From an uncultured Acidobacteriota bacterium (lineage in GTDB: Bacteria > Acidobacteriota > Vicinamibacteria > Fen-336): a DNA stretch of 64,000 bases. Below, one piece after another: positions 51,856-53,298 of this stretch (position 1 is its first letter; every line of letters starts with the position of its first letter). Location: NCBI GenBank assembly GCA_963720545.1, contig OY970399.1:2528001-2592000 (forward strand), read 5' to 3'. Under the pieces are notes generated by a model that was given only the letters and a program-made list of their open reading frames with translations, searched no databases and was not told the origin of the DNA. The position numbers and the translations under genes were made by a program.

Positions 51856-52694
51856 GGAGCGATTGTACCCGCGGAGCTGTAGCGAGTTCCGCGAATGAAT
51901 GCGGCCAGCTGGTCGTGCAGGGCCTCGAACGACGGCACCACGAACAGGCGGTCCTGCATCGCCGAGAACTGGTAGCTGGTAGAGGCGACGGTGTCGGCGT
52001 CGAACGGCAGCAACCGCACGTCCGGCGAGAACGCGTGCGGCAGCTCGCCGAAGCTCGAGAGCAGGCCCGCACCGTAGGCCTTGACGCCGCCTTGCTCCTC
52101 GACCAGCCCGAACTCGAGGGTGAACCAGTAGAGGCGGTCGAGGAACACCAGCTGCGCCTGGTTCGCGGTGCGCGCCGCGCGGCCGATGGTGACCGAGAGT
52201 GCCGCGAAATGCGGGTCGACGAACATCGGCATGTGGCCGAGGACCTCGTGGACGATGTCGGGCTCGGGCGTGTACTCGGGCCGCGAGGCGTGGCGAATGT
52301 ACTGCGTAGACGACATCACGCGGTCGGCGAGGCTGCCGAGGAATTCGGCGGGCTCGACCAGTCCCTCGATGGCGCGCACCGTGAACCCGCTCTGTGCTCG
52401 CAGCGCCGCGGAGAGGTCGGCAAGCTGCGGGATCGTGGTGCGCGGGATGCCGAGCACCTGGCGCGCGTGCTGGTAGCGCTGACACGCGTGCGTCGCGTGC
52501 AGGTCGGCGAGCTGCTCCGCGACCGTGCGCCAGGTGCCGTGCTCCTCGCCCGTGTAGACGAGCCGCGGCGGTTCCCGGCCCGCCATGCGGTGGTCGCGGC
52601 AACGCTGCGCGATTTCGTCGCGGCGGGCGCGATAGAGCGGATCGGAAGCTCCCGGATGGTCGATCCCGAGAACCGCGATGTTCTTCGCCGACAT
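51852..52694 (-). CDS. phhA: phenylalanine 4-monooxygenase
   Basis: AAGGAG RBS; DHPG, STQYIRH, YTPEPDIVHEVLGHMP, LYWFTLEFGL, KAYGAGLLSSFGE. Confidence 0.93.
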   Translation of the reverse strand: MSAKNIAVLGIDHPGASDPLYRARRDEIAQRCRDHRMAGREPPRLVYTGEEHGTWRTVAEQLADLHATHACQRYQHARQVLGIPRTTIPQLADLSAALRAQSGFTVRAIEGLVEPAEFLGSLADRVMSSTQYIRHASRPEYTPEPDIVHEVLGHMPMFVDPHFAALSVTIGRAARTANQAQLVFLDRLYWFTLEFGLVEEQGGVKAYGAGLLSSFGELPHAFSPDVRLLPFDADTVASTSYQFSAMQDRLFVVPSFEALHDQLAAFIRGTRYSSAGTIAP

Positions 52695-52718
52695 GTCTCG
52701 TCTCCTTGGTGAATGCAC

Positions 52719-52758
52719 AAAATGAAAAAGCCCGCGTCCCCTTTCGGGTTGCGGGCTT
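52719..52758 (-). terminator. attenuator terminator upstream of phhA
   Basis: Minus strand AAGCCCGC-AA-CCC-GAAAG-GGG-AC-GCGGGCTT followed by TTTCATTTT. Confidence 0.85.
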
Positions 52759-52789
52759 GACCAGCGTTCGTCAGCTTCGTGAACCGCTG

Positions 52790-52858
52790 CTAGGCGCGCA
52801 CCCCGAGTGCGTATCGGTACGAATACGCGTAGAGGTGGCCGGCCGGCAGTTGTTTCAC
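52790..52858 (-). CDS. Tyr-rich leader peptide (22 aa)
   Basis: GTG...TAG gives MKQLPAGHLYAYSYRYALGVRA*; 4 Tyr in 7 codons; extended -10 TGGCATAAT at 52876-52868. Confidence 0.82.
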   Translation of the reverse strand: MKQLPAGHLYAYSYRYALGVRA

Positions 52859-52885
52859 GAGGCGGGGATTATGCCACACCTCGAG

Positions 52886-52961
52886 GTCTTCCCGAGGAGC
52901 TCAACGCTTGCGCTGCGACCGAGGGATCTCAGTTGCAACCCACTGTGTCCGGACACAGTGG
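52886..52961. repeat. left copy of a 76-bp imperfect inverted repeat containing a perfect 22-bp palindrome
   Basis: 66/76 identical to the reverse complement of 53961-54036; CCACTGTGTCCGGACACAGTGG at 52940-52961. Confidence 0.92.
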
Positions 52962-52962
52962 C

Positions 52963-53298
52963 TCAGGGGTTCGGGGCGAGCAGCAGGGCCCCCAGGAGCT
53001 GTTCGACGCTGCGGCCTTCGCGGGCGGCTCGCTGGCGCAGTTCCTCGGCACGCACGGCGGGGAGCGTCACCTCGAACGTCGGTGCCGCTGCGGCCGTGGC
53101 GAGGTGCGCGGCGACCAGGCCGCGGAAATCGGCGCCGATTCTGGCATCGCCAAGCCGCAGCCGCGCTTCCGAGAGGCGGCCGGCGCCGAGCGAGCACAAC
53201 ACCGAGATCTCGCCATCGCCCGGATCGCCGCGCAGCGTGCGGCCCAGGGACATCTCGACGTCGACGAGGTTGAGGCGATGGCGGTCGAACAGGCCCAC
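52963..53298 (-). CDS. hypothetical protein with C-terminal ribbon-helix-helix-like segment
   Basis: GGAGG RBS before GTG 53298; FEVTLPAVRAEELRQRAAREGRSVEQLLGALL fits an RHH pattern. Confidence 0.6.
   Translation of the reverse strand: MGLFDRHRLNLVDVEMSLGRTLRGDPGDGEISVLCSLGAGRLSEARLRLGDARIGADFRGLVAAHLATAAAAPTFEVTLPAVRAEELRQRAAREGRSVEQLLGALLLAPNP

Follow-up and report, generated by a model that had tools for sequence, protein, structure and literature searches.

The closest described relatives of the element reported here are the leader-peptide attenuators of enterobacterial aromatic genes, trpL-trpEDCBA, pheL-pheA and pheM-pheST, which the accessible part of PMC11802643 treats under the Yanofsky model. 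The same part of that source presents the aroR leader in front of aroF in Corynebacterium glutamicum (Neshat et al., 2014), which carries a Phe-Tyr-Phe sequence and responds to limitation of phenylalanine (Phe), not of tyrosine (Tyr). In mycobacteria, leaderless poly-Cys short open reading frames (ORFs) are described as Cys-responsive attenuators in the accessible sections of bioRxiv 10.1101/834739. For phhA itself, the described setting is the phhABC operon of Pseudomonas, which the portion of PMC1173090 at hand presents as catabolic, induced by Phe or Tyr through the sigma-54 activator PhhR, with phhB, phhC and phhR adjacent to one another. Here we describe the region in front of phhA in an uncultured Acidobacteriota bacterium, within a stretch of 64,000 nucleotides (GenBank assembly GCA_963720545.1, contig OY970399.1, positions 2,528,001 to 2,592,000; hereafter the window, to whose numbering all coordinates refer). 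From its sequence and from folding models, we are fairly confident that this leader is a ribosome-stalling (leader-peptide) transcription attenuator that senses Tyr. Most likely, it switches phhA on when Tyr runs short, in a soil bacterium lacking the usual Tyr pathway.

The initial annotation of this locus, made from the letters of the sequence, had read there an extended -10 box, a 22-codon ORF with four Tyr codons, a U-tailed terminator and the ribosome-binding site (RBS) of phhA, and all of them are present between positions 52719 and 52876. The leader elements are all read on the minus strand and follow each other, 5' to 3', as a -10-like box, the Tyr-rich ORF, a hairpin with its U-run, a Shine-Dalgarno sequence (SD) and the ATG of phhA:

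52876-52868, minus strand: extended -10-like box TGGCATAAT (TGnTAnnnT type; TGnCATAAT), a putative promoter element
52858-52790, minus strand: leader ORF of 22 codons with a GTG start, followed by TAG (52792-52790); peptide MKQLPAGHLYAYSYRYALGVRA
52831-29 (TAC), 52825-23 (TAT), 52819-17 (TAC) and 52813-11 (TAC), minus strand: Tyr codons 10, 12, 14 and 16 of the leader ORF
52848-52787, minus strand: predicted leader helix (segments 1:2, anti-antiterminator), in which codons 5-9 pair with codons 18-22
52806-52794, minus strand: segment 2, UCGGGGUGCGCGC, the 5' strand of the proposed antiterminator, located by inspection and folding
52758-52719, minus strand: intrinsic terminator (attenuator), with its hairpin at 52758-52728, 5' arm at 52757-52746 and 3' arm at 52741-52730
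52729-52719, minus strand: U-tract of the terminator, UUUUUCAUUUU (U5 tract)
52707-52702, minus strand: SD of phhA, AAGGAG, 7 nt before the ATG
52694-51852, minus strand: phhA, monomeric bacterial phenylalanine 4-hydroxylase of 280 aa (Pfam Biopterin_H, E 3.4e-82)

The initial annotation was right about the length of the leader ORF and its four Tyr codons, and needed correction at the start codon, which is GTG and not ATG and has no SD before it. The leader peptide thus reads M/V-KQLPAGHLYAYSYRYALGVRA, and contains no Phe codon; the ORF listing also holds a longer version of 29 codons (52879-52790). The leader GTG lies 9 nt from the box TGGCATAAT, and no -35 element is present before this box. 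In the predicted leader helix, the inner hairpin is formed by the Tyr codons. The terminator stem contains an internal loop, and the gap of 27 nt between the U-tract and the phhA ATG holds the SD only.

Like the trpL, pheL and pheM leaders, this one has a short ORF with a cluster of end-product codons, and as in those leaders the gene regulated makes or charges the amino acid sensed; the predicted leader helix, candidate antiterminator and terminator would likewise exclude one another. Unlike them, it would sense Tyr, and its target is a Phe-to-Tyr hydroxylase instead of an enzyme of the chorismate pathway. It is further set apart by a GTG without SD placed 9 nt after the -10, by a probably leaderless mRNA, by its acidobacterial host, and by having no match to any Rfam leader family: Rfam covariance models run on both strands of 52500-53100 at E <= 10 gave 0 matches. 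With aroR, as far as it is described in the source portion cited above, the leader shares a peptide with a Tyr codon that would attenuate a gene of the aromatic pathway; in contrast to aroR, Tyr is the only clustered residue and Phe codons are missing. The mycobacterial poly-Cys ORFs, taken from the sections cited, resemble it as mini-ORFs that open a leaderless transcript and are rich in the sensed amino acid, but they concern another amino acid and another phylum, and the leaderless state of the phhA leader is proposed from the box-to-start spacing only. With Pseudomonas phhABC the resemblance lies in the enzyme family, PhhA, whereas neither phhB nor an activator gene is adjacent to the acidobacterial phhA (a genome-wide search for PhhR was not made), no hmgA or hpd was found, and the control logic proposed here is end-product repression. 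A search of full-text literature, with subscription-only papers outside its reach, brought up neither an attenuator specific for Tyr nor one acting on phhA; the accessible parts of PMC2965389 and PMC1173090 mention none, and that of PMC11802643 describes no Tyr-specific example. The phhA leader thus appears as the classical attenuation mechanism applied to a new sensed amino acid and a new target gene.

The mechanism that we propose would begin with transcription starting a few bases past the box TGGCATAAT, which would give a leaderless or near-leaderless mRNA whose ORF is translated as it emerges. With Tyr-tRNA plentiful, the ribosome would reach the TAG and cover segment 2, and the hairpin 52758-52728 with its U-tract would stop transcription before phhA. 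If the leader ORF were left untranslated, segment 2 would be held in the leader helix and the terminator would form as well. Under scarcity of charged tRNA-Tyr, a ribosome stalled at Tyr codon 10, 12 or 14 would open the leader helix; the freed segment 2 (52806-52794) would then pair with the 5' arm of the terminator, and RNA polymerase would read through into phhA. PhhA would in turn convert Phe, made de novo via PheA, into Tyr. Since no TyrA was found in the genome, this would amount to end-product control of what is apparently the only Tyr-biosynthetic step.

Neither the Tyr cluster nor the terminator is explained by chance. The genome consists of one contig of 4.09 Mb with 68.7% G+C, in which we screened the short ORFs of 10-45 codons in all six frames (20,975 ORFs genome-wide). 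Only one of these, the phhA leader ORF, has at least 4 Tyr in 7 codons; at least 3 Tyr in 7 codons are found in 3 ORFs, the leader included, and the other two have neither a terminator nor a relevant neighbour. Tyr accounts for 4 of the 22 leader codons, as against about 1.2% of the codons in the long ORFs of the genome. The terminator hairpin has a folding energy of -22.9 kcal/mol (z-score -2.27; 5 of 200 shuffled sequences as good), and the whole 171-nt leader is more stable than its shuffles (z -3.21, 1/200). It is because of these ORF counts and shuffle tests that we consider chance insufficient; the antiterminator complementarity does not exceed it by itself. A genome screen for other amino-acid-rich mini-ORFs followed by T-runs gave no convincing further attenuators.

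PhhA, an enzyme of the Biopterin_H family, converts Phe to Tyr. In the host genome (G000), PDH_N of the TyrA family gave no match, although the same search was positive in 14 of 14 control genomes; the check for tyrA that the initial annotation had suggested thus gave no match in a genome represented by a single contig. Homogentisate dioxygenase (HgmA_C) and 4HPPD gave no match in G000 either. By contrast with these, prephenate dehydratase (PDT, PheA) is present, as is a pterin-4a-carbinolamine dehydratase (Pterin_4a) encoded about 416 kb from phhA. PhhA looks biosynthetic because PDH_N, HgmA_C and 4HPPD were not found and both PheA and the pterin dehydratase were. From this gene content, the enzyme looks to have a substrate supply and cofactor recycling, with no downstream catabolic pathway found, and to be the only recognisable route to Tyr.

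This pattern extends to other genomes bearing the leader. PDH_N was not found in the leader-bearing genome G017, nor in any of five further ones (0/5), namely three Terriglobia of 5.7-6.4 Mb and two candidate-phyla-radiation bacteria of 0.8 Mb. Within genus g27, 8 of the 12 genomes with a leader and phhA have no PDH_N hit, 3 have marginal N-terminal hits and 1 a partial hit of 59 bits, and the phhA-negative genomes (3/3) have a partial hit of 46-52 bits. In four g27 genomes (G028, G030, G040 and G033), a frame of 360-435 aa carries the partial PDH_N match at about positions 41-112, with 46-59 bits. By its sequence, the frame with the partial match may be a divergent TyrA alternating with the phhA cassette. 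In a phylum sample of 301 genomes, 32 of the 67 with phhA and 66 of the 234 without it gave no PDH_N match, counts which include the unpublished genomes G063, G088 and G184, none of which bears a conclusion individually. The association of phhA with the absence of PDH_N is therefore modest across the phylum, and the tight association is that of the leader with a missing TyrA.

The leader recurs in front of phhA in other genomes. PhhA was matched in 16 of 41 related genomes, and apart from the locus of the window itself 12 loci (L003-L014) could be assessed, with at least 42% identity and upstream DNA available. All 12 have a GTG-started mini-ORF with 2-4 Tyr codons, a stop, a GC hairpin with a U-run, an SD and phhA, so that the conservation of Tyr codons proposed as a check by the initial annotation holds in every assessable relative and, as described below, in several other phyla. 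These mini-ORFs have 19-20 codons and Tyr motifs such as RYRY, RRYYYPGG and YASRYCY. Locus L015 ends at a contig edge, and L016 and L017, with 35-38% identity, have no such leader. In all 13 loci compared (the window and L003-L014), a TGnTAnnnT box precedes the leader start by 6-10 nt, and a similar spacing is seen in candidate-phyla-radiation and gammaproteobacterial loci; this position of the box, together with the lack of an SD, suggests that the leader mRNA is leaderless or nearly so. In genus g27 the gene upstream of the leader is divergent, and the terminator therefore cannot belong to it. Also, the insertions and deletions in these leaders are in frame: 19 codons alternate with 20, L012 has a 3-nt deletion, and TAT/TAC exchanges keep the frame. 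The 3' half of the g27 leader ORF is nearly invariant at the RNA level.

Beyond these relatives, a genome-collection set of 80 loci contained Tyr-rich leaders with a terminator in six metagenome-assembled genomes (MAGs) of Terriglobia, in one more acidobacterial MAG and in two MAGs of Gammaproteobacteria, and also in Peribacteria, Saccharibacteria and Parcubacteria/Patescibacteria. Save for the Tyr run, the RNA and the peptide of such distant leaders are unrelated to those of the window, and at each locus that has a leader, a hairpin with a U-run comes after the leader ORF. A uniform detector (minimum of 2 Tyr within 6 codons, stop reached after no more than 22 codons, and hairpin of -9 kcal/mol or lower ending at a T-run) was positive for 25 of 122 regions upstream of phhA, against 2/122 on the antisense strand and 0/122 downstream; L024, L026 and L056 are leader-positive by eye in addition to these 25. 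Of the 75 loci that could be scanned in metagenome contigs, 23 were leader-positive, among them the closest PhhA relatives, L131, L132 and L137 (61-62% identity), whose leaders also have 22 codons, with Y-x-Y at codons 11 and 13; inspection by eye adds the metagenome locus L134. On a quick PhhA tree of 122 rows, 5 changes account for the leader label, compared with 25.5 for shuffled labels, and none of the 500 shuffles came as low. When 300 genomes were sampled evenly from the phylum, their 29 best PhhA loci showed no clear leader (L126 being doubtful), and the device is therefore patchy and not universal.

Two variant arrangements were observed in this survey. In six Terriglobia loci (L018, L020, L022, L023, L025 and L040), the leaders lie about 250-360 nt upstream of phhA and mix Phe with Tyr (YYFYYF, YYFYYSYAY), and an ORF of about 80-90 codons with an MI(H/Y/C)DPF start is found between the terminator and phhA. 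At L133:440-706, no attenuator is seen before phhA, whose start and the stop of the upstream gene overlap (ATGA-type), and this upstream gene has YYYF in its C-terminal part.

The alternative structures are thermodynamically feasible. The initial annotation had noted that segment 2 is complementary to the 5' arm of the terminator, and by inspection UCGGGGUGCGCGC (52806-52794) indeed matches GCCCGCAACCCGA (52756-52744) at 11 of 13 positions; this complementarity is not, by itself, beyond chance in GC-rich sequence. The small hairpin which it had proposed as an alternative way of sequestering segment 2 does fold, at -7.4 kcal/mol (z -1.95), and the minimum-energy anti-antiterminator is the longer helix 52848-52787. 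To represent translation, folds were computed with a ribosome mask on RNA ended just before the 3' arm of the terminator, for 8 sequences. In the free leader RNA of the window, segment 2 is locked in the leader helix (-41.7 kcal/mol) and the 5' arm is open. A mask at Tyr10, Tyr12 or Tyr14 yields the antiterminator, in which 9 of the 12 nt of the 5' arm are paired (-26.2 kcal/mol), and a mask at the stop codon leaves only -6.5 kcal/mol. Six g27 loci follow the same trend. In these models the ribosome mask shifts the leader from a terminator-permissive to an antiterminated fold, as the attenuation model requires, and the placement of the Tyr codons would fit an attenuator in which a stall frees the antiterminator strand and a ribosome at the stop codon masks it. 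With the conserved Tyr codons and the lack of matches to tyrA and catabolic genes, the masked folds support the initial proposal that Tyr stalling turns on a biosynthetic PhhA by end-product attenuation.

In lineage after lineage, the 3' arm of the terminator has a look-alike in the 3' part of the leader ORF, even though the terminators differ in sequence. The duplex between segment 2 and the 5' arm reaches a z of -2 or lower in 7 of 12 lineage representatives, chiefly in the AT-richer ones and in Terriglobia. In the GC-rich lineages, the window included, the test is not significant.

Several observations weigh against the attenuator as we describe it, and most of them concern the antiterminator. 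In the window, segment 2 and the 5' arm form a duplex of 9 pairs at -13.4 kcal/mol (duplexfold), compared with -11.3 +/- 2.3 for shuffled sequences, and its z of -0.9 does not go beyond them. The corresponding values are -0.15 and -0.63 in the two closest relatives, and -0.67, +0.36, -0.68 and -1.09 in four other lineage representatives. For the antiterminator alone the energy is -25.3 kcal/mol (z -0.37; equalled by 64 of 200 shuffles), and for the leader helix it is -25.2 kcal/mol (z -1.25; 21/200). In L003, the untranslated RNA ended before the 3' arm already folds as antiterminator. When the full leader is folded at equilibrium, the terminator is kept wherever the ribosome is masked, and the switch therefore depends on the kinetic assumption commonly made for attenuators, with the choice between structures presumably made during transcription. 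Covariation in g27 is also limited: the antiterminator pairs in 98.4% of cells with no double-sided change and does not exceed its shuffles (16 sequences), and the terminator shows 2 compensatory pairs only (alignment A3). The changes seen in the antiterminator are one-sided and preserve the pairs (GC to GU, UG to UA; alignment A3). These pair counts exclude the MAFFT alignment A2 of the window and its closest relatives, where stop codons are misaligned. Translation from a GTG without SD would need leaderless or near-leaderless initiation, and in this region a simple consensus scanner made no promoter or terminator call. Finally, a PhhA clade of 76 rows from Blastocatellia/Pyrinomonadaceae has no leader, though PDH_N was not found in the genomes sampled from it; its loci are L102-L114 and most of L028-L097, and the sampled genomes belong to family f40. 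A biosynthetic PhhA thus does not need the leader, and if the PhhA of this clade is biosynthetic too, it must be controlled in another way.

Given the weakness of the antiterminator statistics in the window, and the fact that both the translation of the ORF and its alternative structures come from models, one may ask whether the attenuator depends on translation without being specific for Tyr, coupling phhA read-through to general translation capacity, or acting through Rho or by occluding the phhA RBS, with the Tyr codons secondary. The mixture of Phe and Tyr codons in Terriglobia leaders points the same way. We nevertheless regard this as unlikely: from lineage to lineage the leader peptides have nothing in common but their Tyr codons, the enzyme under control makes Tyr where no TyrA was found, and a strong intrinsic terminator is always present.

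It is quite improbable that the hairpin acts constitutively as a terminator or insulator, or that it forms the 3' end of a short non-coding RNA transcribed from the TGGCATAAT promoter, with the promoter of phhA downstream and the Tyr ORF incidental. Only 27 nt, holding nothing but the SD, would be left between the U-tract and the phhA ATG, the order of ORF, terminator and phhA recurs in many lineages, including loci with a divergent upstream gene, and the Tyr cluster is unique in the genome. These points outweigh, in our opinion, the crowding of the intergenic region by repeats resembling repetitive extragenic palindromes (REP-like) and the absence of a promoter call by the scanner, which would suit such a reading.

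That the leader acts as a ligand- or protein-binding RNA switch, be it a riboswitch, a T-box-like element or the target of a regulatory protein, with the open frame a by-product, seems very improbable to us. Such a switch would agree with the 171-nt leader being more structured than its shuffles (z -3.21) and with the near invariance, at the RNA level, of the 3' half of the g27 ORF. Against this, no Rfam model matched even at E <= 10, RNA sequence and structure differ completely from one lineage to another as the in-frame Tyr cluster, the stop and the terminator persist, and indels stay in frame. That the ORF encodes a small Tyr-rich protein with an independent function and merely adjoins phhA is hardly credible, for although a length of 22 codons is common to the closest relatives, the peptides are unrelated except for Tyr and for residues encoded by stem segments, the ORF has no SD, and the terminator follows it directly.

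The attenuator sensing Tyr remains our preferred reading, and metatranscriptome data offer a weak hint of its read-through product. A soil metatranscriptome contig of 173 nt (X20, depth 2, 2 mismatches) spans 52584-52756, from the terminator hairpin through the U-tract to the first 110 nt of phhA. The contig carries neither strand nor transcript ends; it is what a read-through transcript would look like, and DNA carry-over could also account for it. DNA contigs over the leader are identical to the window, with no natural variants.

As for the surroundings of the leader, phhA is the sole copy in the genome, and residues H149, H154 and E194 of the HExxGH and YWFTLEFG motifs of its product are invariant in alignment A1; we take these three residues to be the iron ligands. 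Its neighbours are an ORF of 147 aa without Pfam match and a PMT glycosyltransferase gene. The REP-like intergenic repeats occupy 52889-52961, between the upstream ORF (53406-52963) and the putative leader promoter. They consist of a unit of 40-70 nt (from 52889 to about 52930/52960) and of a perfect palindrome of 22 nt (52940-52961), which together have 59 blastn-short matches genome-wide. In soil metagenome contigs this region shows a depth 10-fold higher and 'goes back 42' joints.

On balance, we lean towards regarding the leaderless Tyr mini-ORF, the terminator and phhA as one cassette distributed over at least four phyla, with Acidobacteriota, several candidate-phyla-radiation lineages and MAGs of Gammaproteobacteria among its carriers, where it would stand in for the TyrA route. 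It would then be the first Tyr-specific ribosome-stalling attenuator, and would mark PhhA as the sole, end-product-controlled Tyr step in many uncultured bacteria, some of them ultrasmall and bound to make their Tyr from scavenged Phe. The phhA leader also offers a compact Tyr-responsive genetic part, and it would extend ribosome-mediated attenuation, probably from leaderless mRNAs, to phyla in which almost nothing is known of gene control. Its regulatory logic provides an argument, drawn from sequence only, that bacterial PhhA, usually annotated as catabolic, makes Tyr in genomes without TyrA. Such a biosynthetic PhhA would change the predictions of auxotrophy made for soil Acidobacteriota and for candidate-phyla-radiation bacteria.

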